Part shown: piece after piece, positions 1-35,536 of the stretch
Position numbering within the stretch: position 1 is the stretch's first letter
Layout: the number at the start of each line of letters is the position of its first letter
Assembly (NCBI GenBank): GCA_964496615.1
Contig: CAZCAB010000001.1
Location: 1 to 35,536 of the forward strand
Origin: an uncultured Gammaproteobacteria bacterium
GTDB taxonomy: Bacteria; Patescibacteriota; Patescibacteriia; Magasanikbacterales; UBA922
Direction: 5' to 3'
Length of the DNA: 35,536 nucleotides
Notes under the pieces: model-generated
Told to the model about the DNA's origin: nothing
Databases searched by the model: none
What the model saw: only the letters and a program-made list of their open reading frames with translations
Position numbers and translations under genes: made by a program

Positions 1-1218
1 CTGCACATTTGAAAAAATGCGTAAATATGCAAGCACGTCCTTTATATGCGCGCGCTCAAAAAAACGAACGCCCCCGCGATAGTCATACGGGATATCTCGC
101 TTTGCCAGTTCCATTTCTAGTGCTTGCGAATGAAACGCCGCCCGAAAAAGAACAGACATGCCTGAAAGTGATACACCCTCTTCTCGTAGTTCAAGAATAC
201 GCTGAGCAACAAACTCAGCCTCCTCCACTGCATCAGCGAATGCCTGGACTTCTGGCTTTCCGAGTGAGCTCACAATACTCTTGAGCTCCTTCTCGTATTG
301 AGATAAATTGCGCGTAATAACATCGTTTGCGAGCGCTAGAATTTCAGGCGTGGATCGATAGTTCGTTTCAAGTCTGTGTACGCGCGCGCTTTCATATTTA
401 TCTTCAAAACCTAAGATATTTTGAATCTCTGCAGCGCGAAATGAGTAAATGCTTTGTGCATCGTCTCCCACAACCAAAACATTCTTATGGATACTCCCGA
501 ACTGATCAACAATCGCAGCCTGAATTTTATTCGTGTCTTGATACTCATCAACGAGCACGTAGCGAAACTGCGACGCAAATTTTTCCCGAACACGAGGAGA
601 TTTAAGCAAAAGCAGGTACAAATTTGTCAGTAAATCATCAAAATCCATTGCATTTGCATCAAGCTTTCGCTTCCGATACTCATCGGCAATTCGCGCGAGT
701 GTCTCTTCATGTTCAAGCCACGATGGATGCTGCACATCAAGAACATCAGCTATTGTACTCATTGCATTTCTTGCATAGCTGATAATCGAAGAAATGACCC
801 GAGGCGATGGGAATCTTTTTTGCGTGCGATCGATCCCTTCCCCTTTCACACAGAGTTTCAAAAGATCTCGCGAATCTTCTGAATCCAAAATAGTGAAGTT
901 ATTTTGATATCCGAGCAAACCTGCGTATTGCTTCAGTATCTTATACGCAACATGATGAAACGTGCCTGCCCATGGCAACTTAACAGTACCTTCTGTCAAC
1001 AATTCAACACGCGAAAGCATCTCTCTGGATGCTTTATTCGTAAACGTTACCAATAAAATACTCCCCGGATCGACTCCTTGCTCCAGCAAATATGCAACAC
1101 GATATGTGATCGCTCTTGTCTTTCCACTCCCCGCTCCAGCCAAAACTAAACACGGTCCATCTCCATTTTGCACCACGATACGCTGCTCTTGATTTAATTC
1201 CTTTTCAAAGTTAATCAT
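1..1218 (-). CDS. uvrD: UvrD/PcrA-family ATP-dependent DNA helicase, N-terminal 406 aa; the 3' end runs off the window, so it has no stop and is absent from the ORF track
   Basis: Own translation from ATG at 1218..1216: MINFEKELNQEQRIVVQNGDGPCLVLAGAGSGKTRAITYRVAYLLE... Helicase motifs I (GAGSGKT), II (VDEYQDTN), III (VVGDDAQSIYSFRAAE) and IV (ETNYRST) are present. The frame is open to position 1. Confidence 0.9.
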   Translation of the reverse strand, partial: MINFEKELNQEQRIVVQNGDGPCLVLAGAGSGKTRAITYRVAYLLEQGVDPGSILLVTFTNKASREMLSRVELLTEGTVKLPWAGTFHHVAYKILKQYAGLLGYQNNFTILDSEDSRDLLKLCVKGEGIDRTQKRFPSPRVISSIISYARNAMSTIADVLDVQHPSWLEHEETLARIADEYRKRKLDANAMDFDDLLTNLYLLLLKSPRVREKFASQFRYVLVDEYQDTNKIQAAIVDQFGSIHKNVLVVGDDAQSIYSFRAAEIQNILGFEDKYESARVHRLETNYRSTPEILALANDVITRNLSQYEKELKSIVSSLGKPEVQAFADAVEEAEFVAQRILELREEGVSLSGMSVLFRAAFHSQALEMELAKRDIPYDYRGGVRFFERAHIKDVLAYLRIFSNVQ

Positions 1219-1224
1219 GGATGA

Positions 1225-1959
1225 TCATTGTACCATGAGTACCACTCGCCTGCCATGCTGCACATCACCACCGTTCCAATCATGGATTGTATTCATTAAA
1301 TCATCATATGTATATTCGAAATCAGCACCATGTTTTGTCCCTGGATCATTTGTTATAAAATGCTCAGGTGTATACCCCTTAATAATTAAAGCATGATACA
1401 CTGGGCCGTCGCCGCTAAAATATGGATTTGGTAAATCTTTTCCATATGCTACAACAAGTACAGGATGCCCGTGTGCAACAGACCGTTTAATTTCCTCGAC
1501 AGTTGGATTCTCAACAATGTGAAATGTTTGCCCCTTTACGTGCTCGTTGGCAAATTCTCGAACTTGTGTCATGGGAATACTATACTCCCACTCTTTCTCG
1601 TCTTGCCAAGAAACCATTTTCAGTATTTCATCACGTGAAAAAAAGGGGCTCAAGCTATATGAAGAATAGTAGGCATCAAGCATAAGGACAGCGGCTTCCT
1701 CGCATGCATCTTGCCATGGCTGTTCCCAATTTCCTTCAGGCGCTTGCGACGTAAACGGTACAGCCAAATCTTTATGTTCAGGCATGTCATCTAAAACTAC
1801 TTTTTCTTTCGCGCGTTCTTCTCTTGCAAGAATTTCAGTGTCCACTCTCACGACAATTGTGACATCTGACAAGGATGTAATTTCTCTCACCACCCAAAAA
1901 ATGCCTAAGCCGAAAAAAATGGACAGGCAAAGACAGATTCTGTTAAATCTAGAAAACAT
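1225..1959 (-). CDS. Membrane-anchored C39-like (papain-fold) cysteine peptidase
   Basis: ORF 1225..2025. Start placed at ATG 1959 (MFSRFNRICLCLSIFFGLGIFW, a TM anchor), just downstream of a terminator. Putative Cys motif WQDACEEAAVLML, His in VYHALIIKGY, and NDPG. Confidence 0.6.
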   Translation of the reverse strand: MFSRFNRICLCLSIFFGLGIFWVVREITSLSDVTIVVRVDTEILAREERAKEKVVLDDMPEHKDLAVPFTSQAPEGNWEQPWQDACEEAAVLMLDAYYSSYSLSPFFSRDEILKMVSWQDEKEWEYSIPMTQVREFANEHVKGQTFHIVENPTVEEIKRSVAHGHPVLVVAYGKDLPNPYFSGDGPVYHALIIKGYTPEHFITNDPGTKHGADFEYTYDDLMNTIHDWNGGDVQHGRRVVLMVQ

Positions 1960-1961
1960 AC

Positions 1962-1995
1962 TAAAAAGAGCGAGGGTCCCGAATCCGGCACCCTC
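1962..1995 (-). terminator. Intrinsic terminator closing the minus-strand unit of GC island 1
   Basis: On the minus strand GAGGGT(g)CCG-gatt-CGG(g)ACCCTC is followed by GCTCTTTTTAG. It lies between the stop of the 171-aa ORF (2016) and ATG 1959. Confidence 0.5.
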
Positions 1996-2015
1996 ATTCC
2001 CCTTGGCGACCCCTC

Positions 2016-2513
2016 TTAGCCGCATGTGATTCCATGAAAATCGCGATAGCGCAGGTTCTCCACCAGATCTTGAAGGGTACCGTGCAAGCGAAGCACTTGC
2101 CGACCACCCGCCTTTCTGGTGCGGTTTAGCACAATCACGACAACGAACACCGAGCCGCGTTGACTCTTGACGCGAACATCAGTACGGCCTCCATTGACGC
2201 CGCGCCGTGCAAGCGCCTCCTCAATCGCATCCTCTACTCGGCGAGCAGAACTCACCTTTGGTAGGGATACGCGATCTGATGCTTCTGACTCCTTCCTCCA
2301 GGTGCCAGCAAGAATCTGCGCACGACTCGTTTCGCGAGCGGGATGTGCTGACTTGCGTGCGTCCAGCTCTTCCCTGCCCGCTTGGGTCAATTCTCCTTCC
2401 GGTGTCAGCCACCCCTTCTTCACAGCATGGGCGACTTCTTGGTTGTACGAAGAAAAGGCTCCAAAGGGAGTCCTCAGGGCCTCATCCCATACAGGTGTGC
2501 CGTTGTTACTCAA
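2016..2513 (-). CDS. Orphan hypothetical protein (165 aa from TTG 2513; the track ORF extends to 2531), GC-rich
   Basis: SD GAGGAGG (2523-2529) lies 9 nt before TTG 2513. G at codon position 1 is 67/165 by hand count, which is coding-like. No family recognised; KKGWLTPEGELTQAGREEL is vaguely wHTH-like. Confidence 0.5.
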   Translation of the reverse strand: MSNNGTPVWDEALRTPFGAFSSYNQEVAHAVKKGWLTPEGELTQAGREELDARKSAHPARETSRAQILAGTWRKESEASDRVSLPKVSSARRVEDAIEEALARRGVNGGRTDVRVKSQRGSVFVVVIVLNRTRKAGGRQVLRLHGTLQDLVENLRYRDFHGITCG

Positions 2514-2581
2514 TCTGCAGTTCCTCCTCAATTTCTGGCATATAGGACGGCGTACCTATAGCCGACGTATCCACTCTATTC

Positions 2582-2609
2582 AGAGTACCACACATTTTTT
2601 TATGGTCAA
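2582..2609 (-). promoter_or_regulatory. Putative sigma70 promoter for the 171-aa ORF
   Basis: TTGACC-N16-TGgTACTCT (extended -10) on the minus strand, about 60 nt upstream of the SD. Confidence 0.45.
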
Positions 2610-2639
2610 AACCCGATATTGATATATGCACAGAAACGG

Positions 2640-2668
2640 TTGACGACTTGAAAAACCCATGATATTAT
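2640..2668 (+). promoter_or_regulatory. Near-consensus sigma70 promoter of the GC-rich plus-strand unit
   Basis: TTGACG (2640-2645), 17-nt spacer, TATTAT (2663-2668). Confidence 0.6.
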
Positions 2669-2675
2669 CTAGCCT

Positions 2676-3150
2676 AATGTCGTCGGATTGGCCGGTGACA
2701 CCTGCAAAGGAGAGGGGGCTTGAGCGTCTTCGCTCGGCTCCTCGCCCTCCTATGTGCACTCATGGCGCGTCCAGCGCCAGCGCAGGAGGAGACTCCTACG
2801 ACGAGAGCACCGGGGCAGGTGAGGAGACCACGGCCCCGAGGTCGCAACCACGCATGTGCCACGTTCCCTCGCTGGATCTGGTACAGAAGGTTGCTCCTTC
2901 GGGTCTGTACCAACGGCTAGGAGCCCATGCTCTTGGCCGCATCAGACATCACAAGGAGATAAAACAAACCCTCGTGGAAGAGGATGGTTCGCGACGTAGT
3001 AAGCAGCGCATCAGACGCACAGACTTATTGGACAGTCGCCACACCACAGAACAACGCACAGGGATGGGGGGACAGGAGGACAACAGACCGCCTTCCACTC
3101 ATTGACCTGTTCAATCTGGACAGATCAATGAGGAGGCGGTTTTGTTTTTT
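2676..3150 (+). ncRNA. Candidate structured ncRNA of unknown class (about 470 nt, GC-rich); a leaderless 142-aa ORF (2677..3105) is the alternative reading
   Basis: Bounded by the promoter at 2640-2668 and the terminator at 3088-3150. Dense strong hairpins include GGUACAGA...CC(UUCG)GG...UCUGUACC (2880-2911), the 10-bp GGCUAGGAGC-CCAU-GCUCUUGGCC (2915-2938) and a GGAG-GAGA-CUCC GNRA loop. The open frames show no codon-position bias by hand count. No RNase P, tmRNA, SRP or tRNA motifs found. Confidence 0.4.
3088..3150 (+). terminator. Rho-independent terminator of the GC-rich plus-strand unit
   Basis: Long imperfect hairpin with CCGCCT/AGGCGG and CTCATTGA/TCAATGAG arms (3088-3139), followed by TTTTGTTTTTT (3140-3150). 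Confidence 0.7.
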
Positions 3151-3170
3151 CTTGATAAGAAGGATATAGT
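3142..3170 (+). promoter_or_regulatory. Putative rlmH promoter, with leaderless geometry
   Basis: TTGTTT-N17-TATAGT; ATG 3179 lies 8 nt after the -10 and there is no SD. Confidence 0.4.
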
Positions 3171-3178
3171 ACAAACAT

Positions 3179-3649
3179 ATGCTCAGTTTCACCATCATAT
3201 CAGTCGGCAAACTCAAAGAATCATATTGGAGGGAAGCACAAAAAGAATACGCAAAAAGGCTTTCATCTTTTTGTCATATGAACATTGTCGAACTCAAAGA
3301 GGAAAAAAATGATGGAAAAAGTAATCGAGAATCAGTTCAAAAGAAAGAAGCGCAAAAAATACTCAAAGTGATTCCAAAAAATGACTATGTGATCACGCTT
3401 GATCCAGAAGGTCAATCCTACACGTCCCAAAAACTCAGTTCATATATTGAACTACTCACGCACGAAGTGAGCTCAATTTCGTTCATTATTGGAGGCCCAC
3501 TTGGTTTACATAAAAAAATACTGAGTCAATCAAAAAAGAGCATATCGCTCTCTTCTTTTACTTTTACGCATCAAATGGCGCGCATTATCCTTCTTGAACA
3601 ACTGTACAGAGCCTTCATGATTTCAAACAACAGACCGTACCACCACTAA
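3179..3649 (+). CDS. rlmH: 23S rRNA (pseudouridine1915-N3)-methyltransferase RlmH (SPOUT)
   Basis: 156 aa. Contains FIIGGPLGL, FTFTHQMARIILLEQLYRAF and a C-terminal RPYHH, typical of the YbeA/RlmH family. Confidence 0.9.
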   Translation: MLSFTIISVGKLKESYWREAQKEYAKRLSSFCHMNIVELKEEKNDGKSNRESVQKKEAQKILKVIPKNDYVITLDPEGQSYTSQKLSSYIELLTHEVSSISFIIGGPLGLHKKILSQSKKSISLSSFTFTHQMARIILLEQLYRAFMISNNRPYHH

Positions 3650-4596: not shown

Positions 4597-5966
4597 ACTT
4601 GAGCGTCTTCATTTTCAGATAAAAAGTGATCTTCAGAGGGTCTCACGTCAATCGTTGGAATGTCTGGGAGTACTGTTTGCATGCTCGGCCCTTTCACTTC
4701 TACACCATTTTGGCTCCTTTTAGGTGTCTCACGTTTTCTTCGAACTAGAACAAACGCACCCAAAATGATGAGGAGTACAAATCCAAATACGCTAAAAAAG
4801 CGGAAGCGGACTACTGGATCTCCGAGAAAGGCAAAAGTTGCAGCAAAAAACTGATAGATCACTCCCCCAACCTGAAACCTCACAACGTGCGTATCTTTCA
4901 TATCAACCCCAAAGTTCATGGTCGCCAGTAGTGCGTATGCTCCTCGTGATGGAGGAGTATACAATGTCGTAAATGTTGTGCGCTGCCCTTCACTAAAAGG
5001 TATATCTTTGGTTAAACTGAATGTCTCAACTTTTGTTTTTCCTTTAAAGACTTCGAGTTTGGCAGATGGTACATAGTTACTGGTTCCAGTATTCTCAACC
5101 ACAACCTCAATTTTGACTTTCTCGCCTTTCTTTAATTGCGATGAACTCAAGAGTACGTCACGAATTTTCCCAGACTGAGACAATATTCCTTCTGGATATA
5201 CGCGTAGAAGGGCGCTTTTTGAAACCACGTTGTCTACATCATACTTCGCCAAAATCGCGAGCTCATATTCTCCTGCATCAAGAAGCAAATCTGAAGTAAG
5301 CACGAGCGACTTCTGTTTACGAGGACTTACCCCACGAACTTTAGAAGTATCAATGGTGGACGTTACGACTGATACCCCGGACTCGTCAAACACCTCAAGT
5401 AGAACCTCAGAAAAACGAAAATCAACAGTCCCTCTATTTGCAATCTCAAACTCGAGCTGAACCGGACTCCCCGCTTGCGCAGGTTGCACATTAGCAAAAC
5501 GTACGTCAGCATCATGAACTTCTTGTCCAGTTACTTCAAAGTGAATCCGTCCCACAGCACCACTCTGAGCGTCAACGCTTTGCCCGCTCCTAGTTCTTGC
5601 TTGAATTTTCGTTGCCGGCTCAGCAACTAAGAATACATCATATGTTCCATTCGGTGCCGTGCGGACATCAAGTGTAAACTCTACACCGACAGATCTCGCA
5701 CCTTCAGAAAATTCAAGTATACGTCTTGAGAGCTTCACGTACTCAGATCCAAATCCCTCCACGCGCACACTGTAAGCTCGCTTCTTATCTATTTCAGAAT
5801 TTGTAATTCTGAATTCATCCGAAAAAGTTGCTGTTTTGGTAAGTCTACCACTTTCAATGGTACTCGGACTGATACCTGTCGCAAAGGTAAAAGAGATAAA
5901 ACCAAATAAACCACCCAGGAGTAGACCGGGTAGAAGCAAAAAACGAATGTATTTTTCTACACGCAT
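4593..5966 (-). CDS. Hypothetical membrane-anchored protein with about three Ig-like (CARDB/NEW3-like) repeats and a C-terminal TM plus charged tail
   Basis: ORF 4593..5984. Start placed at ATG 5966 (MRVEKYIRFLLLPGLLLGG, signal-like), 6 nt after TGgTATACT (5973-5981). Repeated beta-rich modules of about 100 aa. TM segment FFSVFGFVLLIILGAFVLV. Confidence 0.6.
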   Translation of the reverse strand: MRVEKYIRFLLLPGLLLGGLFGFISFTFATGISPSTIESGRLTKTATFSDEFRITNSEIDKKRAYSVRVEGFGSEYVKLSRRILEFSEGARSVGVEFTLDVRTAPNGTYDVFLVAEPATKIQARTRSGQSVDAQSGAVGRIHFEVTGQEVHDADVRFANVQPAQAGSPVQLEFEIANRGTVDFRFSEVLLEVFDESGVSVVTSTIDTSKVRGVSPRKQKSLVLTSDLLLDAGEYELAILAKYDVDNVVSKSALLRVYPEGILSQSGKIRDVLLSSSQLKKGEKVKIEVVVENTGTSNYVPSAKLEVFKGKTKVETFSLTKDIPFSEGQRTTFTTLYTPPSRGAYALLATMNFGVDMKDTHVVRFQVGGVIYQFFAATFAFLGDPVVRFRFFSVFGFVLLIILGAFVLVRRKRETPKRSQNGVEVKGPSMQTVLPDIPTIDVRPSEDHFLSENEDAQV

Positions 5967-5992
5967 AGCTTTAGTATACCACAAAAATATCG

Positions 5993-7735: not shown

Positions 7736-8278
7736 CTAAAAAAGTAAATACGGAGCACCATATACTACAAGCAGAGCGAGTAGTGCCCCGGCAATAACAT
7801 CACGGGGGTAATGAACACCAACGTACACACGTCCGAATGATACCAATAGTGCCAAAAGAACAAAAAGCAAACCCCACCAAAAAAATGGGAATGTCACCCC
7901 TACAACACCTGCCATGATAAAAGATAGGAGTGCATGATCTGACGGAAATGATTTTTCAGGCGTCAGCGGCTCGATAAGATTTTTTACATTATCTAGTTCG
8001 TTGTACGGACGCTTTCTTCTGATAAATATTGCAAGCACGTAGCTAAAAAAAATCCCGATGATCATATCCACGCCTGTCCAAAACAGCATCCACACCCATC
8101 GAGGTCCCTTTATATCGCTGCTCAGGCCAAACTCATATATAAAGAGCGCAGCCATCAGTATACCCATAATCCAAATAAGCCATTTGGCGCAAAAAACCAT
8201 AATGCGATCACACTGCGGATTCTTGCCGACACGCTTTTGTATGTTCAAAAATAAAATGTGACTCCAACTTAATTTCAT
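7736..8278 (-). CDS. PAP2-family phosphatase (undecaprenyl-diphosphatase-like)
   Basis: PAP2 motifs RRKRPY, PSDHA and GRVYVGVHYPRDV in a multi-TM protein. ATG 8278 overlaps the prfB TGA as ATGA. Confidence 0.8.
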   Translation of the reverse strand: MKLSWSHILFLNIQKRVGKNPQCDRIMVFCAKWLIWIMGILMAALFIYEFGLSSDIKGPRWVWMLFWTGVDMIIGIFFSYVLAIFIRRKRPYNELDNVKNLIEPLTPEKSFPSDHALLSFIMAGVVGVTFPFFWWGLLFVLLALLVSFGRVYVGVHYPRDVIAGALLALLVVYGAPYLLF

Positions 8279-9372
8279 GGTTGAGACTTTAACCATTTTA
8301 AATACGCTTCAACAAAATCATCCAAATCCCCATCAAGAACTGCACCGGGATCTTTGACCTCAAAACGAGTACGGACGTCCTTTACCATTTTGTACGGATG
8401 CAAGACATACGACCTAATTTGACTTCCCCATTCCGGGCTTTTGTATTCCCCGCGAAGCTTCAACCGCTCCTGCTCTTCTTTTTCCTCCTGAAGTTTCTGC
8501 AAGCGAGACGCAAGTATCTTCATTGCTGTCTGCTTATTCTGCAATTGGGATTTTTCATTTTGACAACTGACAGTTGCGCCAGTCGGAACATGCACAATGC
8601 GGACTGCTGAATAGGTTGTATTAACACTCTGCCCACCTTTCCCACTGCTCATAAATGTATCAATACGCAAATCCTTTTCATCAAGTGTAAACTCTTCGTG
8701 TTCAATTTCGGGGATGACTTCGATAAGAGCAAATGAGGTATGTCTCATTTTTTCAGCATCAAACGGGGAAATGCGTACCAACCGATGTGTCCCGTGCTCA
8801 CTTTTCAAATGTCCGTACGCCCATATTCCTTCGACGCGGAGAGTGGCAGATTTGATGCCAGCTTCTGATCCTCTCGATTCATCGAGCAGCGTCGTTCTCC
8901 ATCCCTTTTTTTCACAATATCGCAAAATCATGCGCATGAGCATCTCATTCCAATCTTGCGCTTCTGTCCCACCTGAACCTGCATGGAATGTGATGATCGC
9001 ATTCTTGCGATCATGCTTCCCATCAAGGAGAAGGTAAAACTCAAGTTTTTCGAATTGTATTTGTAGATCAGAAACTTTTTTCGTAAGCTCGGCGTACATA
9101 TCCTCATCAGGATTAGTTTCAAGATCCCCACAGAGCAAAATCAGCTCATCAATTTCACCTCTCATTTCTGTCCATGTATCGATCTCATTTTTGAGTGTCT
9201 CATGCTGCTTGCTTACTGCTGTTGCATGTTCCTGATCTGCCCAAAAATCAGCTCCTTGCATTTCTTTTTCCAGCTCCTTAACCTGAGAAGCACTTGCATC
9301 AATGCCAAGAAGTTCCCATGTTGAGGCAACTTTTTCCTTTAATGTCTTGAGTTGTTTTAACTGCTCTTTCAT
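8275..9372 (-). CDS. prfB: Peptide chain release factor 2, encoded as one uninterrupted frame
   Basis: 365 aa with SPF motif (RISPFDA) and GGQ motif (SGKGGQSVNTT). No internal TGA or +1 frameshift site is needed. Confidence 0.95.
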   Translation of the reverse strand: MKEQLKQLKTLKEKVASTWELLGIDASASQVKELEKEMQGADFWADQEHATAVSKQHETLKNEIDTWTEMRGEIDELILLCGDLETNPDEDMYAELTKKVSDLQIQFEKLEFYLLLDGKHDRKNAIITFHAGSGGTEAQDWNEMLMRMILRYCEKKGWRTTLLDESRGSEAGIKSATLRVEGIWAYGHLKSEHGTHRLVRISPFDAEKMRHTSFALIEVIPEIEHEEFTLDEKDLRIDTFMSSGKGGQSVNTTYSAVRIVHVPTGATVSCQNEKSQLQNKQTAMKILASRLQKLQEEKEEQERLKLRGEYKSPEWGSQIRSYVLHPYKMVKDVRTRFEVKDPGAVLDGDLDDFVEAYLKWLKSQP

Positions 9373-9460: not shown

Positions 9461-11387
<1,927 letters not shown>

Positions 11388-11429
11388 AGTGAATATGCAA
11401 TACGTAAATTATATTTAAAATAGAGTCAG

Positions 11430-11456
11430 TTATCACTCCCATATATGGAGTGATAA
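11430..11456. promoter_or_regulatory. CIRCE-like inverted repeat, a putative HrcA operator
   Basis: TTATCACTC-N9-GAGTGATAA against consensus TTAGCACTC-N9-GAGTGCTAA, with one symmetric substitution per arm. It lies between the groES promoter and the start codon. Confidence 0.75.
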
Positions 11457-11466
11457 TTGCAAGACC

Positions 11467-11494
11467 ATTGTACAGGATATACGAAAAAAGTCAA
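11467..11494 (-). promoter_or_regulatory. groES-groEL promoter
   Basis: TTGACT-N16-TACAAT on the minus strand, immediately upstream of the CIRCE element. Confidence 0.6.
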
Positions 11495-11543
11495 TACTTG
11501 CGGAAATAATTTAAAAAAAGCAATATTTTTAGCTTATTTAAGC

Positions 11544-11670
11544 AAAAAACCCACCATTGGCACCAAGCTCACTGTGACAACCCCATATGTAAGACTGTGA
11601 TGCCTGTCAAACACAGCCTTGAAAGGGCGTACACGTGCGCCTGAAGCCAATGGTGGATTCTTTAAAGTGC
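11544..11670 (-). ncRNA. Candidate small RNA (about 127 nt), one long irregular hairpin with its own promoter and U-tract
   Basis: An 11-bp closing stem CCACCATTGGC/GCCAATGGTGG (11551-11561 with 11646-11656) extends through UCAGGC/GCUUGG and further helices, followed by UUUUUU. Longest ORF is 5 codons. No SRP GGAA/AGCA motifs. Confidence 0.5.
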
Positions 11671-11676
11671 CTTCTC

Positions 11677-11705
11677 ATTATATGCACAGGTGGGCGCAGC
11701 GTCAA
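11677..11705 (-). promoter_or_regulatory. Consensus-like promoter of the sRNA candidate
   Basis: TTGACG (11700-11705), 17-nt spacer, TATAAT (11677-11682) on the minus strand. Confidence 0.6.
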
Positions 11706-13049: not shown

Positions 13050-13981
13050 ACAATTTGATGGGCACGACAGACCATTTGCCAGAGCTTTCGATAATGGGCA
13101 CGACGATCGTTCTCATGAAATTTAAGCATGGTATCAGAAATAACGACTCTGGTATCAGGCTCATGCTGGATACTCCCGGTATTTTGTGCCATCCTATGCA
13201 TTTGATACGTCTTTGCCTTCTTGTCAAACAGATCGAACAAAACGGCCGGCAGTCGCTCCACCCACTTCTGGACTAAACTCTGAGAAGTCTGCCAATCGTG
13301 CGATGGATTTTTCTGTGTATCTGCATGAGGCAGAGCAAACTTAAGCCAGTGATTCGCAGCACGCACGCGTGCATACGTCTTATGTGAATCAAAAAGTGGA
13401 ATAAGATGCGTGAGCCAATACACTAAATAGATATCATCTCGTGAAAGCGCAATATCTGCTAAGTTTAACCGCTCATCACTAATATAGAAACTCAAACATA
13501 TTTTATCTCTCACATCATCTTTTGATCTTCGCATCTTAAAAAGCTCAAGCATACTAGTAACAAGCAAACGACCAATCCACATTCTCCCGTGCTTTAAGAC
13601 AATGAAAAAATCAATATCGCTCTGATCCTTAGGGACTCCAAATGAAACCGTATTACATAGATACACACCACGAACAAATGGAATGTATGATAATAGTCTG
13701 GCAGCTCGTTTTGCAATACGCATCTTTTTTTCAGCAATAAGAAGACGCTCCCTCCTCTCGTTGACAATAGAAGATCGTCCCGGTAGAAAAAAATGGCCCC
13801 ACAGAGATTCAACAACTCCTGAATCCTTCAATATATCCAAACCTTGAATGAATGAGGAAAAAGAAATTTTCTTTGCATCCCATAGCAGTCGGTACAGCTC
13901 TTCCTTGGTAAGCGCGTAATCAAAAACATCAAAAAAAGCGAGTGTCTGTAGAACCGATTTTCGAAAGGAAGCTCCATCCAT
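13046..13981 (-). CDS. Hypothetical protein, possibly nucleotidyltransferase-fold; start trimmed from the 495-aa track ORF
   Basis: ATG 13981 (MDGASFRKSVLQTLAFFDVFDY...) lies 8 nt after TACACT. Contains SFGVPKDQSDIDFFIV. ATGA overlap with the downstream gene. The upstream 184 codons of the track ORF read through the GC-rich island in another frame. Confidence 0.6.
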   Translation of the reverse strand: MDGASFRKSVLQTLAFFDVFDYALTKEELYRLLWDAKKISFSSFIQGLDILKDSGVVESLWGHFFLPGRSSIVNERRERLLIAEKKMRIAKRAARLLSYIPFVRGVYLCNTVSFGVPKDQSDIDFFIVLKHGRMWIGRLLVTSMLELFKMRRSKDDVRDKICLSFYISDERLNLADIALSRDDIYLVYWLTHLIPLFDSHKTYARVRAANHWLKFALPHADTQKNPSHDWQTSQSLVQKWVERLPAVLFDLFDKKAKTYQMHRMAQNTGSIQHEPDTRVVISDTMLKFHENDRRAHYRKLWQMVCRAHQIV

Positions 13982-14007
13982 ATATTCTGAGTGTACCTGA
14001 TTTTCGT

Positions 14008-14033
14008 ACAAAACAAAAATCGCCCAAGGCGAT
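14008..14033 (-). terminator. Intrinsic terminator
   Basis: ATCGCC-ttg-GGCGAT followed by TTTTTGTTTTG on the minus strand. Confidence 0.65.
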
Positions 14034-14042
14034 ATTTTTATG

Positions 14043-14081
14043 CCCCCGCCCACCTCGACCTTTCGGTGAGGTGGGCGGGGG
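14043..14081. other. Very strong GC hairpin at the 3' end of the 99-aa cassette
   Basis: CCCCCGCCCACCTC / GAGGTGGGCGGGGG, a 14-bp perfect stem, with an inner ACC-GAAA-GGT on the minus strand. There is no adjacent U-tract; the canonical terminator follows 10 nt later. Confidence 0.7.
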
Positions 14082-14133
14082 TCGTTGGTTCTGCTGCCCC
14101 CAATGATGTCGGATCTCAGCGCTGGGGCGGCTA

Positions 14134-14433
14134 CTACTCGCTGACCTGCAGGTAGCCGGCCCGCTCCTCGGCGTTGTAGAAGCCCTCGACGCGGAGACCG
14201 CCGACGGGCATGCCCTCGATCGCGTTCATGAGGTTCCCACGGATGCAGAACATCCCGCGAGAGCCGGACTCGTAGCTGAGTCCGGTAATCTGCACGACCA
14301 CCTGACCGGTCTCGTGCGAGGTCTCGAACGTCGCGGTCGCGCCACGGGGATCGAAAGCGCGTGCGAACGCGTCGAGGATGTCGGGCGTCGAGGGGTTCAG
14401 GGGGTTCTTGAGAATGTCGATCCTGACCTTCAT
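14134..14433 (-). CDS. Orphan 99-aa protein with high-GC codon usage (MKVRIDILKNPLNPSTPDILDAFARAFDPRG...YLQVSE)
   Basis: SD GGAGGA (14438-14443) lies 4 nt before ATG 14433. About 88 of 99 codons end in G or C and 38/99 start with G (hand counts). Double stop TAGTAG. No family recognised. Confidence 0.65.
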   Translation of the reverse strand: MKVRIDILKNPLNPSTPDILDAFARAFDPRGATATFETSHETGQVVVQITGLSYESGSRGMFCIRGNLMNAIEGMPVGGLRVEGFYNAEERAGYLQVSE

Positions 14434-14488
14434 GTGCTCCTCCATGCGGCTGAAAGTGATATGCTGGCACCGCAAGACCAGACAACAG

Positions 14489-14517
14489 ACTATACCACAT
14501 AAAAGGAAATTTGTCAA
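14489..14517 (-). promoter_or_regulatory. Consensus promoter of the 99-aa cassette
   Basis: TTGACA (14512-14517), 17-nt spacer, TATAGT (14489-14494), followed by a 5' leader of about 55 nt. Confidence 0.65.
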
Positions 14518-15587: not shown

Positions 15588-15617
15588 AGTTGCCAAAGTA
15601 TATCACCAGACCTAGCC

Positions 15618-16214: not shown

Positions 16215-16225
16215 ATACCCTTAGT

Positions 16226-18515: not shown

Positions 18516-18523
18516 ACACCACA

Positions 18524-18559: not shown

Positions 18560-18588
18560 TTGACAAAACTCCTTTTTTCTGCTATACT
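18560..18588 (+). promoter_or_regulatory. Consensus promoter for the plus-strand two-gene unit
   Basis: TTGACA-N17-TATACT. Confidence 0.6.
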
Positions 18589-18607
18589 ATGTTGTATAGT
18601 ATTAAAA

Positions 18608-18637
18608 GTACGGCGAGGATGCCGTGCTTTTTATTTC
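18608..18637. other. Terminator-like hairpin about 13 nt downstream of the predicted TSS (5' stem-loop, attenuator or insulator)
   Basis: GUACGGC-GAGGAU-GCCGUGC (7 bp) followed by UUUUUAUUUCUC. On the other strand it is followed by UUUUAAU. Confidence 0.5.
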
Positions 18638-18661
18638 TCATCAAAATAAACACAAAAACAT

Positions 18662-22048: not shown

Positions 22049-22051
22049 ATA

Positions 22052-22296
22052 TATTAATTAAACCCCGATACAAGAAAACCATATTGATTTGCTTGTATCG
22101 GGGTCCTGATATTCAAGACGGTTCCACCCGACTATTTTCTTTGCTAATTGTCATGCTCCAAGAGTCGGTACCATGCAGGTTTTTCCCAAAGAAGGTTTCC
22201 AGTCACGACCTTCTCTCCCTGGTGGGTCATCCCCTGCTGGGCTAGCTCTTGTCCAAACGCATGTAGTAGGCTACATCACTCAAACTCTTCTGTCAA
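22052..22296 (-). promoter_or_regulatory. T-box-like leader (promoter, stem I region, T-box sequence, terminator/antiterminator) upstream of thrS
   Basis: Promoter TTGACA-N17-TAGCCT (22268-22296). T-box motif GGGUGGAACCG (22119-22129) against consensus GGGUGGUACCG. 12-bp terminator CCCCGATACAAG/CTTGTATCGGGG (22063-22103) plus UUUAAUUA. UCGGG of the T-box can pair with CCCGA of the terminator 5' arm. ACC codons are present in the stem I region. Confidence 0.65.
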
Positions 22297-22300
22297 GGTA

Positions 22301-26204: not shown

Positions 26205-26230
26205 AGCAAAAACTCCCCTATTAGGGGAGT
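26205..26230 (-). terminator. Intrinsic terminator of the 89-aa cassette
   Basis: ACTCCCCT-aat-AGGGGAGT followed by TTTTTGC on the minus strand. Confidence 0.7.
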
Positions 26231-26288
26231 GAACTATTGGTATTTGGTCCCAGGCACAGCTGATGGGACTATCTGCTGGTCTCTATTC

Positions 26289-26558
26289 TCAATCCAATTG
26301 AGAAGAGAAGAGCAAAGCTACAAGGAGCAGTAGCGCGAGATAGAAAACGAACTCACGAGGAGTCCACTGCATAGCCAACTCAGTTCTCCCAGGAAGACCC
26401 TTTTGTTGGCACCTACCACAAACCCCATCCTTGTGGTGAATCTCATACCACTCTTTCTCGCAATGGATGCACGTCTCCATGCGATCAGCAAAGAGAGCTT
26501 GGCGTTCCCTACCGAGTCGTATGAGTGCTTCATTGATTTCTCTTTCTCGATCAGTCAC
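26289..26558 (-). CDS. Small tail-anchored zinc-ribbon protein (89 aa)
   Basis: SD AGGAGG (26563-26568) lies 4 nt before GTG 26558. CIHC-X14-CGRC motif. C-terminal TM FVFYLALLLLVALLF. Confidence 0.55.
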   Translation of the reverse strand: MTDREREINEALIRLGRERQALFADRMETCIHCEKEWYEIHHKDGVCGRCQQKGLPGRTELAMQWTPREFVFYLALLLLVALLFSSQLD

Positions 26559-26593
26559 GATTCCTCCTAAAAGCTGTGCCCAGGCGTCAACGT

Positions 26594-26622
26594 ACTATAT
26601 GTGAAAAAACTGTATGTGTCAA
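26594..26622 (-). promoter_or_regulatory. Consensus promoter of the 89-aa cassette
   Basis: TTGACA-N17-TATAGT on the minus strand, with a 35-nt leader. Confidence 0.6.
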
Positions 26623-26623: not shown

Positions 26624-26655
26624 AAAAAACTCCCCCTTTGGGGAGTTTTATTCTT
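26624..26655. terminator. Bidirectional terminator after ftsH
   Basis: AACTCCCC-cttt-GGGGAGTT flanked by A6 and T-rich runs. Confidence 0.75.
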
Positions 26656-26665: not shown

Positions 26666-28535
26666 TTAGCTCTCAACTTCTTCTTTCTCTTTTTCCTCTT
26701 TCTTTTGCTCACCTTTCATCACTTGATCAAAGAGTTCTTGCTCAACCGTCTCATGCTCCATGAGTGCATCAACAAGTCGTTGCATTTCAGTCATGTGCTC
26801 ATCGATAACCTTTGTTGCCCTTTCCTTTGCTTCTTCAAGAAGCTCATTGATCTCGGCATCGATAATTTCGGCTGTCTTTTCAGAATAATTCCTCTTATTG
26901 TGAATCTCTTCAGCAAGGAAAATCATTTGCTCATTTTCACCATACAAGCGTGGGCCAAGTTTGTCACTCATAGCATACCGAGTCACCATTGCTGTTGCTG
27001 TCTCAGTTGCTTTTTTCAAATCGCTCGACGGACCTGTGGTAAGAAATTCATTACCGTACTTCTTCTTTTCAATCACATACCCACCAAGCATCATGGCAAG
27101 ATCATCTTTAAACTTCGCGAGTGTTCTATACCGTACGTCTTCTTTTGGCATTGAAAGCGTATATCCACCAGCCATACCACGACCAATGATCGATACCTTT
27201 CTCACAGGGTCACAATGTTCAAGGAAATGCCCGACAATTGCATGTCCTGCTTCGTGCCAAGCGGTCATCTCCCGCTCCTTGTCGCTCATCACGCGCGAAC
27301 GCTTCTCAGGACCGAGGAGCACTTTATCAATACTCTCAAGAATCTCTTCTTCAGTTACCTGCTTTTTCTCTTTACGTACCGTAAGAATCGCTGCCTCGTT
27401 CAAAAGATTCTCTAGATCAGCGCCTGAAAATCCTGGAGTTCGCTCAGCAAGTTTTCGAAGTGACACTCCCTTACCCATCGGCTTGTTCTTCGCATGCACC
27501 TTCAAAATCTCTTCTCTGTCATTGATATCTGGCATATCAATGACCACACGTCTATCAAACCGTCCTGGTCGAAGCAGTGCCCGATCAAGGACGTCTGGTC
27601 TATTTGTTGCTGCCATGACGATCACACCAATGTTTGGATCAAACCCATCCATTTCAACCAAAATCTGGTTAAGGGTCTGCTCTCTTTCATCGTGTGAACC
27701 ACCAAGACCTGCTCCTCGCTTTCGACCAACCGCATCAATCTCATCGATAAAGACAATGGCAGGAGCTGCCTTTTTTTGCTTTGTTGAACAAATCTCGTAC
27801 CCTGCTCGCACCGACACCAACAAACATCTCAACAAATTCAGATCCTGAGATATGAAAGAATGGCACACCTGCTTCACCTGCAACTGCTTTTGCTAGAAGT
27901 GTCTTACCTGTCCCGGGGGATCCCATCAAAAGTACCCCACGAGGAATCTTGGCTCCCATGTCAGTGAATTTCTTTGGATCTTTAAGAAAATCAACTATTT
28001 CCTCAAGCTCGTCCTTCGCCTCTTTAGCTCCCGCAACATTGGTAAAGGTAATCTTATTCTTATCATCCGGCTTTGCTTGTTTTGCACCGCTCTGTCCAAA
28101 GCCCATTGCACGGTTATTCATACCCTGCACTTGTCTGGTCATGAGCCACATCAGACCAAGAATAAGGAACAGTGGGAATAGATACGGAGCAACGGCAGCT
28201 ATCCACACTTGTGGTCCTGTCTCGTCTTTTACCTGTACATCAATTGCCTGAAGTTTTTCAGCATCAACCTTGTAATCAGTCATGAGTTCGCTGAACGACT
28301 GCCCAAGCTCTTTTTTGAGCTGCTGCGTATTTGCCTCTTCATCAAGAAGAGTAACGGTTACGGTATCATTGATAACCTCAATACTCTTTACTTTTCCTTC
28401 GTTGATTTCCTGTACCAGTGTATTTACGCCGATATCATCCGGTTTTTCAGCATTAAAATCTGAAAAACTCATAACACCCGCAATGAGAAAGAGTGTCACA
28501 ATGATGAGTCCAATATTTTTTGCTAAGTTTTTCAT
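26666..28535 (-). CDS. ftsH: ATP-dependent zinc metalloprotease FtsH, split into two track ORFs by a 1-nt frameshift in an A7 run (27771-27777)
   Basis: N-terminal ORF: TM segments and Walker A GSPGTGKT...[11 protein letters not shown]-terminal ORF: [15 protein letters not shown] (Walker B), the SRH region and [10 protein letters not shown]. The total span is 1870 nt, which is 3n+1. Deleting one A gives [18 protein letters not shown]. Confidence 0.9.
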
Positions 28536-28553
28536 GCGTACTCCTCTATACTA

Positions 28554-29765
28554 TTAAGCGACCACCTCTTCAGAATCCTCTGAAGTTTGTGGTTGATTAC
28601 TTTCTTCAGGTTTTTCTTCTGCGACTGGAACTTCTACCTCTGTCTCTGCAGGAGTTTCCTTACTTTTTCCAGCATTACTCCCTACTAATTTCAAACCGAG
28701 GCGATGTTCAGCAGGCTCCATAGAAATAATCTCAAATGCATGCTTTTCTCCAATCTTGAATGCTGAAAGAAAATCTCGTGGATCGCTCAGACGCTTTCCG
28801 GTCAAATCCGAAATGTGCGCAAGTCCATGAATATCATCATCGAGCTTAACCATGAGACCAAATGCCTCTATCTTATGAATCTCACCTTCAAGTTTTTGTC
28901 CAACACTGTATTTATCTTTCACATGCTTCCATGGATCTTCAACCAAACGCTTGAGGGAAAGATAAATTTTTGATTTGTTCAAATCAATAATCTGCGCCTT
29001 TACACTATCACCCACTTTCAAAACATCTCGTGGATGATCAATTCTCTGCCAGACGATCTCTGAAATGTGTGCCAGCCCTTCAAGTCCCTCGCCAAATTTC
29101 ACGAATGCTCCAAAACCGGTGAGCGCAGCAACTTCTCCTTCAATCGTGTCTCCAATCTTGTACTGATCAAGGACAGCTTTTTGTTCGTCTTCCCACAGTG
29201 CTTTTTCTGATAGGATGAGCTTTTCCGTATCTTTAGTTGCATCAAGGACGGTAACACGCAAATTTTTTCCAATAAAGCCTCGTAAATGCTCTAAAATTCT
29301 ATTTTTATCTCCGCCTGGGACGCGTGGATAGTTATCAGGTGACAGCTGAGACACTGGCAAAAAGCCGTGAAGTCCGTCGACCTTCATAAGAAGTCCACCT
29401 TTATTGGCTTGAAGTACTTTCGCTTCAATCGGGGATGCTTCATCTCTAATCTTCTCCATTCGCTTCCACACGATCTCATGACCGGCAACACGAAAAGAGA
29501 GTTCCATTTCCCCACTCTCATTTTCAAGCTCAATCACGGTTGCTTCAACATCATCATCGACGTTTACATCTGAAAATTCTTTTGATTCTGAAAAAAGTTC
29601 AGGACCACGAACAACACCAACAACAAGACCGTTAACATCGATTCGTACCTCCCCTTTATCAATTGATATAATCCTCCCCTTAATTAAATCACCGACCTCA
29701 GGCATCTGCGCAAAATAATCTGATAAAAGCGCACCAAAGTCGGTTTTCGTGGCAGTATCTGCCAT
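28554..29765 (-). CDS. rpsA: 30S ribosomal protein S1
   Basis: Repeated S1 domains (GDLIKGRIISIDKGEV..., GDTIEGEVAALTGFGAFV, GDSVKAQIIDL, GQKLEGEIHKIEAFGLMV). Start placed at ATG 29765 (MADTATK). Confidence 0.9.
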   Translation of the reverse strand: MADTATKTDFGALLSDYFAQMPEVGDLIKGRIISIDKGEVRIDVNGLVVGVVRGPELFSESKEFSDVNVDDDVEATVIELENESGEMELSFRVAGHEIVWKRMEKIRDEASPIEAKVLQANKGGLLMKVDGLHGFLPVSQLSPDNYPRVPGGDKNRILEHLRGFIGKNLRVTVLDATKDTEKLILSEKALWEDEQKAVLDQYKIGDTIEGEVAALTGFGAFVKFGEGLEGLAHISEIVWQRIDHPRDVLKVGDSVKAQIIDLNKSKIYLSLKRLVEDPWKHVKDKYSVGQKLEGEIHKIEAFGLMVKLDDDIHGLAHISDLTGKRLSDPRDFLSAFKIGEKHAFEIISMEPAEHRLGLKLVGSNAGKSKETPAETEVEVPVAEEKPEESNQPQTSEDSEEVVA

Positions 29766-29832
29766 ATGCATCCATTGTTTAACCCGAAAATCCGAGTGAC
29801 CCCTCAAATGAGGCCTAATTTAGTGGAGCTAT

Positions 29833-29861
29833 ACTATATATACATTTCTCCTATTTGTCAA
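29833..29861 (-). promoter_or_regulatory. rpsA promoter P2
   Basis: TTGACA-N17-TATAGT. A second candidate, P1, is TTGACA-N17-TATCGT at 29897-29925. Confidence 0.6.
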
Positions 29862-34688: not shown

Positions 34689-34827
34689 ATATACTCTGTA
34701 TGTTACTATAATGTACCACGTATCATATCAGCTAAAAAAAGCAAAGTAAACAAAAAACGGGCACATCCATATCCCTTGTCAAATACCCCAAAATCAGGTA
34801 TACTAGATCCGCTAAAAGAACCAAATT

Positions 34828-35448
34828 ATGCATATTTCATGGCTCGGAACGAGCACACTCAAAATACAAACCAAGCACGAAGGAAAGGATGTAACGCTCG
34901 TCATTGACCCGTATAAACCGAAAAAAGGGGCATTCCCAAGGAGTCTCACACCACAAATTGCGCTGTTTACCCGATCTGAAAAAGACTCGGTTACCTTGTC
35001 AGGAAATCCGTTCATACTGTCCACTGCAGGAGAGTGCGATGTACAAGGAGTTCTTGTCACCGCAGTTGAAGGGCATGATCCTGACACAACCATGCTCAGA
35101 CTTGATCTTGAAGACATGTCCTTGGGCCATCTTGGTCTGTCACATACCCCTCTCAATGAAAAACAGCTCGAAGTACTCAGTGGTGTCGATATACTCTGCA
35201 TTGGCGTGGGTGGGAAAAACGTCCCCACATATTACCCCCATGAAGCGGTAAAAGTGATTAATGACGTGGAGCCGCGGATCATTATCCCGTATGCGTTTAA
35301 AAGTGATAATAGCGCAGATGCAAAACCAGTTGCTGATTTTCTCAAAGAGATGAGTATGCCTGCTGAAAAACCAGAAACGAAAGTGATTATCAAAAAGAAA
35401 GATCTTCCAACCGAACACACACAAGTTATCGTGCTCTCAAAAGAGTAA
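34828..35448 (+). CDS. MBL-fold (UPF0173-like) protein with a degenerate metal-binding motif
   Basis: MHISWLGTSTLKIQ...DVTLVIDPY resembles the N-terminus of metal-dependent hydrolases, but the expected HxHxDH position reads FTRSEKDS. Confidence 0.5.
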   Translation: MHISWLGTSTLKIQTKHEGKDVTLVIDPYKPKKGAFPRSLTPQIALFTRSEKDSVTLSGNPFILSTAGECDVQGVLVTAVEGHDPDTTMLRLDLEDMSLGHLGLSHTPLNEKQLEVLSGVDILCIGVGGKNVPTYYPHEAVKVINDVEPRIIIPYAFKSDNSADAKPVADFLKEMSMPAEKPETKVIIKKKDLPTEHTQVIVLSKE

Positions 35449-35454
35449 AGGAGT

Positions 35455-35536
35455 ATGCCTGTTAAAAAAATAGACAAGAAAAAAAGTCTAAAAAAGAAAG
35501 CTCCGAAAAAAAAGGTGGCTGCTAAGAATACGAGAA
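35455..35536 (+). CDS. Start of a Lys-rich ORF (MPVKKIDKKKSLKKKAPKKKVAAKNTR...) running off the window
   Basis: ATG at 35455, open to the window end. Only 27 codons are visible, so no identification is possible. Confidence 0.3.
   Translation, partial: MPVKKIDKKKSLKKKAPKKKVAAKNTR

Follow-up and report, generated by a model that had tools for sequence, protein, structure and literature searches.

Introduction

Bacterial start codons that are used without a Shine-Dalgarno (SD) sequence are known from several described systems, and here we compare with them the genes of one contig of the Patescibacteria, or Candidate Phyla Radiation (CPR) (CAZCAB010000001.1, assembly GCA_964496615.1), in which native genes lack SD sites and three short intergenic cassettes carry strong ones. 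The whole stretch that was analyzed, a complete contig of 35,536 nucleotides (nt), is referred to as the window. In the genomes that GeneMarkS-2 places in "group C" (Actinobacteria, Deinococcus-Thermus), a Pribnow box is found 6–8 nt before the starts of first genes in 25–50% of transcription units (PMC6028130). Initiation in Bacteroidia (Flavobacterium johnsoniae) is SD-independent genome-wide, and the anti-SD is retained but sequestered by bS21/bS18/bS6 (PMC6847099, PMC7797042, PMC9976891, PMC13000453). In Flavobacteria, rpsU keeps a strong SD, which is read by ribosomes free of bS21 (PMC6847099, PMC9976891, PMC13000453). Pairing between the U at position −1 of an mRNA and A37 of the initiator tRNA was shown in Escherichia coli by compensatory mutation, with a modest effect on SD-led mRNAs; the same report cites Esposito et al. 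(2003) for U(−1) pairing in the chloroplast (PMC10018350). On the ribosome side, Tsurumaki et al. (2022) report an anti-SD motif in only 48% of Parcubacteria (PMC9297842). Our search of the literature on Patescibacteria found this rRNA-side study and no description of mRNA start contexts, leaderless mRNAs, or U(−1), and no published assignment of this CPR class to a GeneMarkS-2 group was found.

We consider it probable that the normal mode of initiation in the lineage of this contig does without SD pairing and uses an AUG in a weakly structured region with a U directly upstream, and that the cassettes are SD-led exceptions.

Related loci and scoring of starts

The nearest MiaB genes in a scan of 185,579 species genomes belong to Ca. 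Magasanikbacteria (66% identity), followed by Uhrbacteria, Falkowbacteria, and other Patescibacteria, which places the contig within the Patescibacteria (CPR), in the Magasanikbacteria/Uhrbacteria group. The 25 best MiaB loci (L001–L025; ~430 kb, ABY1-class) were used as clade relatives; they form a sample of ~360 genes surrounding one syntenic region. Control loci from Saccharibacteria, Actinomycetota, and Planctomycetota were taken from the same MiaB scan. Open reading frames (ORFs) were called in all loci alike, using a codon-usage score, greedy overlap resolution, and the first ATG as start. In the window, 27 native starts were curated by N-terminal sense, homology, and ORF structure. SD sites were scored as the duplex energy of positions −22 to −2 with the anti-SD tail CACCUCCUUU. 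Promoters are consensus matches, and a −10 box was called strong when it reached at least 5 points from TATAAT matches plus the TG extension.

Shine-Dalgarno sites are absent from native genes and strong in three cassettes

SD energies at native starts range from +2.0 to −8.4 kcal/mol with a mean of −3.3 (n = 27), compared to a mean of −2.6 in 3,000 random windows of the contig, and the share at or below −6 kcal/mol does not distinguish the two (0.148 of native starts and 0.133 of random windows). The cassette energies of −11.5, −10.2, and −9.3 kcal/mol lie beyond all 27 native values (Mann-Whitney p = 0.003), and only 2.8% of random windows reach −9 kcal/mol. The cassette SDs are GAGGAGG (2529–2523), GGAGGA (14443–14438), and AGGAGG (26568–26563), all on the minus strand and all as given in a first-pass annotation, which had described native genes without SDs and cassettes with strong ones. 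That description holds for the window, with native energies equal to random and the cassettes strongest of the 30 starts, except for ftsH. This gene (28533–28547, minus strand) is the sole native one with a good SD-like site (AGAGGAG, N5, ATG 28535; −8.4 kcal/mol) and has C at −1. All native starts in the window are ATG. The prfB gene (8275–9372, minus strand) is one uninterrupted ORF without a programmed +1 frameshift site and internal SD, which fits an SD-independent lineage.

The same scarcity was found in the relatives. Among 336 genes of the 25 loci, SD sites at or below −8 kcal/mol precede 7% (10.6% of unit-first and 2.2% of internal genes; random, ~4%), and G-runs in terminator hairpins account for several of these. 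SD 5-mers at a spacer of 4–8 nt are near-absent in the relatives, with none in their internal genes. Passed through the same pipeline, the Actinomycetota controls gave a sharp SD peak at spacer 4–8 in more than half of the genes (14–18 hits per position among 105 unit-first genes), and the Planctomycetota control loci gave clear SD peaks too. SD frequency had been proposed by the first-pass annotation as a check on its claim; counted over these 25 loci, SD rarity is clade-wide, so it is no sampling artifact of the window. SDs in relatives are enriched in genes of elevated GC content. Genes at least 0.08 above the GC of their locus have an SD in four of seven cases, versus 20 of 329 others (Fisher p = 6e-4), and a fifth gene of the seven has one at an alternative start. 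Examples, each behind a −10 box, were found in L013 (269 amino acids [aa]; GC at third codon positions [GC3] 0.87), L011 (AAGGAGGTG), and L004 (GGAGGA). The SD/no-SD dichotomy is thus real, clade-wide, and statistically clear.

The window contains no rRNA or tRNA, and no tRNA-fMet was found in the 21 related loci scanned. The 16S rRNA end that the first-pass annotation had wanted inspected could be read in a relative, although the contig itself has no 16S gene: the 3′ end in L006 (positions 1–60), the only related locus that holds one, reads GGATCACCTCCTTTCT, a canonical anti-SD. The clade resembles Bacteroidia in lacking SDs while probably keeping the anti-SD (seen in relative L006), in its weakly structured starts, and in having few strong-SD genes. 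Its dominant start signal, U at −1, differs from the A at −3, −6, −12, and −13 of Bacteroidia, with a modest A enrichment here, and its SD genes, unlike the ribosomal, autoregulatory rpsU, are accessory, GC-rich, self-contained cassettes. Anti-SD loss in Parcubacteria provides independent published evidence of a likewise relaxed SD pairing in CPR ribosomes; that study covers the rRNA motif and not mRNA start contexts, and relative L006 keeps the canonical tail (PMC9297842).

T at position −1 is the main native start signal

T stands directly before 23 of the 27 curated native starts (24 of 28 including the 127-aa gene at 19878; 21 of 26 automatically called) and before 73% of 351 starts in the relatives. 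At internal in-frame ATGs of the same genes, the frequency is 19–23% (22% in the window; binomial p = 1e-11 for the window and 2e-106 for the relatives). At starts of other groups, the excess of T(−1) is weaker (54% in Saccharibacteria and 41% in other CPR) or small (31% in Actinomycetota and 36% in Planctomycetota). T(−1) is the single outstanding column in the position-specific upstream composition, and the A content of 33–46% across −14 to −2 is modestly above that of other positions. The signal, which is the main one of native genes, was overlooked in the first-pass annotation.

T(−1) is also kept where the base falls in a synonymous site of the upstream gene, in seven of eight ATGA overlaps, and 12 of 13 one-base spacers read stop, T, ATG. 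It precedes 79% of operon-internal and 70% of unit-first genes. We rejected the possibility that T(−1) is a mere pyrimidine-purine rule at transcription starts, as internal and overlapping genes show it as strongly (79%). Native starts are, in addition, less structured than the rest of the contig, with a mean fold energy over −25 to +25 of −4.7 kcal/mol versus −7.6 kcal/mol in random 50-nt windows (p = 2.5e-5).

None of the cassette starts has T(−1): the bases are A, C, and C, and two of the three use TTG or GTG. In relatives, T(−1) is found at 33% of SD-bearing starts versus 77% of the rest (Fisher p = 2e-5), an anticorrelation by which SD marks atypical genes independently of GC. The loss of T(−1) is a second, GC-independent line of evidence for two initiation styles. 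As in E. coli, U is favored directly 5′ of the start codon. The E. coli effect is modest, whereas T(−1) here reaches 73–85% in a lineage without SDs, is kept at synonymous sites, is absent from SD-led cassettes, and is depleted in SD genes of relatives; this suggests that U(−1) acts as a main start determinant.

The SD-led cassettes

Each cassette is a complete unit that occupies a gap between genes, directly behind the terminator of the upstream gene. It runs from a near-consensus promoter through a leader, SD, and short ORF to a terminator. The leaders, previously put at 35–60 nt, measure 35–68 nt from the −10 box and ~29, 49, and 62 nt when counted from where transcription is predicted to start. 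GC content is heterogeneous (0.64 for the 99-aa, 0.57 for the 165-aa, and 0.485 for the 89-aa cassette, versus 0.43 for the contig), and the transcripts fold better than shuffled sequences (z = −3.2 to −3.8). The three proteins are unrelated to each other and to those of SD-led genes of relatives. No flanking repeats or integrase were found at the cassettes, and there were no PHROG matches and no phage genes near them; neighbors are yidC, the groES/EL region, ftsH, rlmH, and similar genes.

Cassette 2 (14010–14517, minus strand) encodes the 99-aa protein. Its promoter (TTGACA 14517–14512; TGgTATAGT 14497–14489) is followed by a ~49-nt leader with a 5′ hairpin, the SD GGAGGA, ATG 14433 (C at −1), a stop codon at 14136–14134, a GC-rich 3′ hairpin, and a terminator at 14033–14019. 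GC by codon position is.60/.44/.89. An exhaustive phmmer search identified 33 relatives, mostly ~90–120 aa long, with the motifs NPS...AF..A.D, YESG..GMF, and GFYNA. No relative was found in a metagenome scan, and neither the 99-aa nor the 89-aa ORF had a match in a word-indexed search of 5.8e9 proteins; nothing was assigned to either by Pfam, a PDB sequence search, PHROGs, or PADLOC. The AlphaFold model of the 99-aa protein (predicted local distance difference test score 94) is a small beta-rich fold with one helix, for which Foldseek returned no convincing fold match (best template modeling score 0.53, CBF-beta). The protein defines an unannotated family, and the ORF is a real gene.

The expression signals of this family recur together with its composition. 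On four contigs with homologs, gene GC3 is 0.74–0.85, and flanking GC is 0.38–0.47 in three and 0.60 in the fourth; with the window included, GC3 ranges from 0.74 to 0.89 and exceeds flanking GC in four of the five sampled contig backgrounds. Assembly chimerism was considered for the GC-rich islands and rejected, given that the pattern of a gene in lower-GC flanks recurs in independent assemblies. Upstream regions are readable in the window, L083, L086, and L087, and all four have TTGACA, 17 nt, a −10 box, a 50–55-nt leader with a hairpin at its 5′ end, a strong SD, and a base other than T at −1; the SDs of the three homologs read AGGAGG, GGGAGG, or AAGGAGG. In L081/L082, the contig breaks off shortly before the homolog, and only AAGGA and G at −1 are visible. 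Downstream of the ORF, L081, L086, and L087 share a GC-rich 3′ hairpin with the window. Neighbors vary by locus and include map-adk and L20-L35-IF3, among others. Promoter, leader, and SD thus travel with the cassette or are maintained in it. The high GC3 of the family may reflect either frequent transfer or selection, e.g., for a stable, heavily used mRNA.

Cassette 1 (1970–2609, minus strand; GC 0.57) has TTGACC at 2609–2604, TGgTACTCT at 2590–2582, a ~62-nt leader, the SD GAGGAGG, TTG 2513 (A at −1), a stop codon at 2018–2016, and a hairpin with a T-run at about 1995–1972. The SD of what had been listed as a 171-aa ORF is confirmed; read from the TTG, the ORF has 165 aa. Its GC is higher at first (GC1) than at second (GC2) codon positions, and it hit only itself among the 5.8e9 proteins. 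The protein has a weak wHTH-PRTase-associated match (Pfam, below cut-off) and a PRTase_III-A match (PADLOC, E = 0.003). The start given by NCBI (135 aa) passes over the SD-led TTG and trims part of the weak wHTH match.

Cassette 3 (26212–26622, minus strand), by direct reading, has TTGACA at 26622–26617, TATAGT at 26599–26594, a ~29-nt leader, the SD AGGAGG, GTG 26558 (C at −1), a stop codon at 26291–26289, and a terminator at 26230–26212. Its 89-aa protein is a zinc-ribbon with two CxxC pairs and a C-terminal hydrophobic (membrane) segment, has no homologs, and is encoded with nearly native composition (GC by codon position.60/.39/.47). In L004 and L018, the gap between ftsH and the gene for the 325-aa protein is ~135–180 nt between tblastn alignment ends, leaving no room for this unit. 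The cassette is bracketed by near-identical terminators at 26632–26645 and 26212–26230 (minus strand; ACTCCCC..GGGGGAGTTTTT), and the first ~15 nt of its predicted mRNA (26584–26572) can pair over 13 bp with the 3′ untranslated region (26261–26249). Duplication of a host terminator on insertion and protection of RNA ends may lie behind these two features.

The best surviving alternative to a dedicated SD-led class, which we regard as rather unlikely, is that the cassettes are passive foreign relics, recently acquired from SD-using donors of higher GC, with SDs as leftovers and the dichotomy a matter of ancestry. It would account for the GC of 0.64 and GC3 of 0.89 in the 99-aa ORF, for the 0.57 of island 1 in a contig of 0.43, and for the L004/L018 junction being too short to hold the 89-aa unit, but the composition of that unit is nearly native. 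Also in its favor, neither the 165-aa nor the 89-aa ORF has homologs, and the GC-elevated genes of relatives are enriched for SDs; the three cassette promoters, however, match the consensus of the genome itself (TTGAC[AC], 16–17 nt, (TGn)TAnnnT), like those of rpsA and yidC. The 99-aa homologs, at only 47–54% identity and in different genomes, have the same architecture and high GC3, which is unexpected from decaying relics. This sharing of signals and composition favors a mobile unit or a conserved regime of expression over a one-off foreign relic. Of the "different origin or special expression regime" suggested by the first-pass annotation, the part that lasts is that SD marks atypical genes beyond GC; for the 99-aa cassette, a different origin is an oversimplification.

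Phage morons are self-contained insertions between genes, each with its promoter, ORF, and terminator and with a deviating GC content. The cassettes are like them in being single ORFs with their own promoter and terminator, placed between unrelated units and present, absent, or in different contexts among relatives. Two also deviate in GC (0.64 and 0.57 versus 0.43), the 89-aa unit only to 0.485. Unlike morons, the cassettes lie among chromosomal housekeeping genes and without a phage signal.

−10 boxes close to the start codon

A strong −10 box lies 6–9 nt before the ATG (N6–N9) in five of the 27 native genes, versus 0.55 expected from the density over the whole contig (binomial p = 2e-4). 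Two of the five also have −35 boxes at 16–17 nt: yidC (15585–15625, minus strand; TTGACT, 17 nt, TGaTATACT 15605–15597, N9, ATG 15587) and miaB (18513–18551, minus strand; TTGATT, 16 nt, TATAAT 18529–18524, N8, ATG 18515). The others are rlmH (3165–3181, plus strand; TATAGT 3165–3170, N8, ATG 3179, T at −1), the 463-aa CARDB protein (5964–5981, minus strand; TGgTATACT 5981–5973, N6, ATG 5966), whose predicted transcription start site is the A of the ATG, and uvrD (1216–1235, minus strand; TGgTACAAT 1235–1227, N8, ATG 1218, C at −1), where the arrangement lies within the 3′ end of the peptidase gene. In relatives, 26 unit-first genes have a strong −10 box at N6–N9 versus 8.4 expected (p = 9e-7), with sharp peaks at N6 and N8, and Saccharibacteria have the same pattern (p = 3e-9). 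By visual reading, miaB orthologs in about 8–9 of the 25 relatives have a good −10 box at N6–N8, and several more have one at N10–N13.

The base at −1 changes with the spacing. T and C are about equally frequent at N6, and T is found in 11 of 12 cases at N8, which fits a start site on the A of the ATG at N6 and 1–2 nt upstream, keeping U(−1), at N8. At N8–N9, the predicted 5′ untranslated region is 1–3 nt rather than 0, so that the commonest spacing, N8, gives an mRNA that would begin 1–2 nt before the AUG.

All seven −10/ATG pairs from which leaderless mRNAs had been predicted are present where the first-pass annotation placed them. Their −10 boxes are strong for rlmH, CARDB, yidC, and miaB, to which uvrD, missed there, is added; those of the 311-aa gene (13979–13995, minus strand; TACACT, N8, ATG 13981) and the basic 198-aa gene (16212–16228, minus strand; TAAACT, N8, ATG 16214) are weak, the former with four of six matches. 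TAAACT includes the miaA stop codon, which makes translational coupling an equally good reading for the 198-aa gene. The seventh pair, in the island-1 plus unit, probably belongs to a structured RNA, as discussed below. At least seven unit-first native genes have leaders without an SD, so that only some native units can be called leaderless; what native genes have in general is SD-independent initiation at U-AUG.

We find it quite improbable that the near-start hexamers are no promoters at all, with transcription starting further upstream, TAnnnT at −14 to −9 being part of an A/T-rich loading region or stop codons, and no leaderless mRNAs being made. Operon-internal genes of relatives also have boxes in excess at N6–N9 (11 versus 2.8 expected), as this idea predicts, but the enrichment is strongest in unit-first genes and sharp at N6 and N8. 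The miaA stop codon within TAAACT and the A-rich region from −14 to −2 suit it as well. It leaves aside the −35 boxes at 16–17 nt for miaB and yidC, the TG extensions for yidC, CARDB, and uvrD, and the T/C at N6 and T at N8 that a start-site rule predicts. For miaB, which follows a divergent intergenic region, the next candidate promoter is a palindromic site ~90 nt upstream.

The arrangement is like that of group C in its −10 boxes 6–9 nt before unit-first AUGs, in a fraction of units only (~5–7 of roughly 13 in the window; a 13–19% excess in relatives by a stringent count). Unlike group C, whose other genes use SDs, the internal genes here have SD-like sites at a random rate, and the modal N8 predicts leaders of 1–2 nt that keep U(−1).

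Native units with leaders but no SD

Other native units have predicted leaders without an SD. The rpsA unit (29763–29861, minus strand) has TTGACA, 17 nt, TATAGT, and a ~61-nt leader ending in U-AUG at 29765. The 398-aa gene (18560–18664, plus strand) has TTGACA, 17 nt, TGnTATACT, and a ~67-nt leader with a hairpin at 18604–18631, an A-rich SD-less stretch, and U-AUG at 18662; the terminator-like hairpin may be an attenuator or may end a short RNA that shares the promoter. Two promoter-like sites precede groES (11385–11494, minus strand), giving an SD-less leader of 14 or ~73 nt before U-AUG at 11387, and groEL starts downstream of groES at TAA-T-ATG. Measured from the best promoter-like sites, SD-less leaders are ~21 nt for the 325-aa gene, ~17 nt for the MBL-fold gene, and 10–27 nt for the giant ORF. 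The ribosomal protein bS1 is the usual candidate for loading SD-less leadered mRNAs, and bS1 of the window has four S1 stretches.

A repeat resembling the controlling inverted repeat of chaperone expression (CIRCE) is found upstream of groES at 11456–11430 (minus strand; TTATCACTC, N9, GAGTGATAA) and is a variant of the HrcA operator consensus (TTAGCACTC, N9, GAGTGCTAA). Between the 381-aa gene and thrS, a 250-nt structured region (22049–22300, minus strand; z = −3.3) precedes thrS and is possibly a regulatory leader. It ends with a GC-rich hairpin directly before the ATG and has no T-box or other Rfam match. The spacing between these two genes is about 130 to 820 nt in relatives where both were aligned.

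Candidate structured RNAs

Island 1 includes, divergent from the 165-aa ORF, a unit on the plus strand (2640–3150) with TTGACG at 2640–2645, 17 nt, TGaTATTAT at 2660–2668, N8, ATG 2677, and a long terminator hairpin at about 3090–3150. Its GC by codon position is flat (.64/.57/.59), its "protein" is of low complexity, and its fold z is −6.0/−6.1, compared to +1.65 to −2.9 in native coding controls. These features argue against the leaderless mRNA proposed in the first-pass annotation, and the unit is probably a structured RNA of ~475 nt, with a start site that is close to an ATG by chance. Island 1 thus joins a ~475-nt structured transcript (2640–3150, plus strand) to the divergent 165-aa ORF (2016–2513, minus strand), and could be a small RNA-protein accessory module. 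No Rfam family was found in the islands or leaders (whole window, E ≤ 1).

A second candidate small RNA lies at 11505–11705 (minus strand), between the Wzy-type gene and groES, behind the promoter TTGACG, 17 nt, TATAAT (11705–11677). It consists of a ~125-nt extended hairpin closed by CCACCATTGGC/GCCAATGGTGG with a U-run (z = −6.5) and has no Rfam match.

Could the cassette ORFs likewise be no genes, the GC-rich islands being structured non-coding RNAs with incidental purine runs? GC-rich sequence keeps several frames open by chance, and the cassette folds (z = −3.2 to −3.8), together with the z of −6.1 and flat codon-position GC of the island-1 plus unit, point that way. Against this, the 99-aa ORF has extreme codon periodicity, 33 homologs, and a fold predicted with confidence. 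Codon periodicity resembles that of native genes in the 89-aa ORF, which also encodes two CxxC pairs and a hydrophobic C-terminal segment, and the 165-aa ORF has GC1 above GC2 and a weak wHTH match. The idea fits the island-1 plus unit alone and is very unlikely for the cassettes.

Gene content and sequence quality

The contig has a GC content of ~0.43, with two GC-rich islands at about 2000–3100 and 13500–14500. Annotation with Pfam identified housekeeping genes, nearly all on the minus strand. Genes in the window code for uvrD, a C39 peptidase, rlmH, the CARDB surface protein, mltG/yceG, a nucleotidyl transferase, a PAP2 protein, prfB, groES/EL, a Wzy-type ligase, a PRC-barrel protein, yidC, miaA, miaB, thrS, a PilB-type ATPase, ftsH, rpsA, a 1574-aa M48/ABC1 protein, and an MBL-fold protein. 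Several relatives with Patescibacteria-like genes (e.g., L006) are labeled "uncultured Gammaproteobacteria," evidently wrongly.

In ftsH, one extra nucleotide at an A7/GG run (GCAAAAAAAGGCAGC; window 27741–27883, frameshift near 27765–27775) divides the gene in two, and miaA has an in-frame TAG at 16721–16723. As both genes are otherwise intact and conserved, these would be either assembly or homopolymer errors or early pseudogenes. They raise a concern about sequence quality or gene decay that does not affect the SD, −10, and T(−1) statistics.

Proposed explanation

That an ordinary SD-using genome yielded an SD-poor window by chance, an idea that only the ~28 genes of the window and the SD-like site of ftsH would favor, is practically negligible with 336 genes of 25 related loci equally SD-poor and SD peaks in the Actinomycetota and Planctomycetota controls.

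Under the favored reading of SD-independent initiation at U-AUG, the native start signal would be a four-base U-AUG, most plausibly recognized when U(−1) pairs with A37 of the initiator tRNA. Unit-first genes that lie 6–9 nt past a −10 box, a minority, would give mRNAs with leaders of 0–3 nt and initiate in a leaderless-type manner. Other unit-first genes would have SD-less leaders with an open A/U-rich region, probably loaded with the help of bS1, and internal genes would be coupled to the preceding stop codon through ATGA overlaps or stop, T, and ATG. The anti-SD tail of 16S rRNA is probably still present, so that a small gene class could use SD pairing. For the GC-richer and more structured cassette RNAs, an SD may be an effective way to recruit the ribosome, and in the 99-aa family it would be part of a portable or maintained expression regime and no accident. 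A stronger form, which we put forward only tentatively, is that U-AUG read by the initiator tRNA (U(−1):A37) replaces SD genome-wide, with the anti-SD used almost solely by portable GC-rich cassettes and two translation channels in each cell.

Several points weigh against this explanation. Each promoter, leader length, and start codon is a prediction for this organism, and the number of promoter-like sites in the window is not above that of shuffled sequences; only their position relative to starts stands out. Starts in the relatives are crude (first ATG of the ORF), which dilutes signals and could not create the T(−1) bias. The anti-SD was seen in one relative, at 55% MiaB identity, and the host ribosome might be unable to read SDs. 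By analogy with Bacteroidia, ribosomes could also be SD-blind despite an anti-SD, in which case the cassettes would be poorly translated or need special ribosomes. A need for an SD imposed by mRNA structure is something we infer, and the fold energies of the translation initiation regions of two cassettes (−5.1 and −5.3) are near native. The 165-aa and 89-aa ORFs, whose expression is putative, have no homologs.

Implications

None of the components described here is new in itself; what appears to be new is how they are combined, how strong U(−1) is, and that a conserved cassette family is SD-led. Gene annotation in CPR needs the right start model. Gene-finder models may capture the U-AUG rule implicitly; applying it would make start calls more accurate throughout a very large uncultivated radiation. 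A lineage with near-obligatory U(−1) would be a natural test bed for four-base reading by the initiator tRNA. The presence of an SD with no U(−1) and elevated GC is a simple sequence marker for accessory or mobile genes in these genomes, and it becomes of interest how ribosomes that are mostly SD-independent handle the SD-led cassettes.

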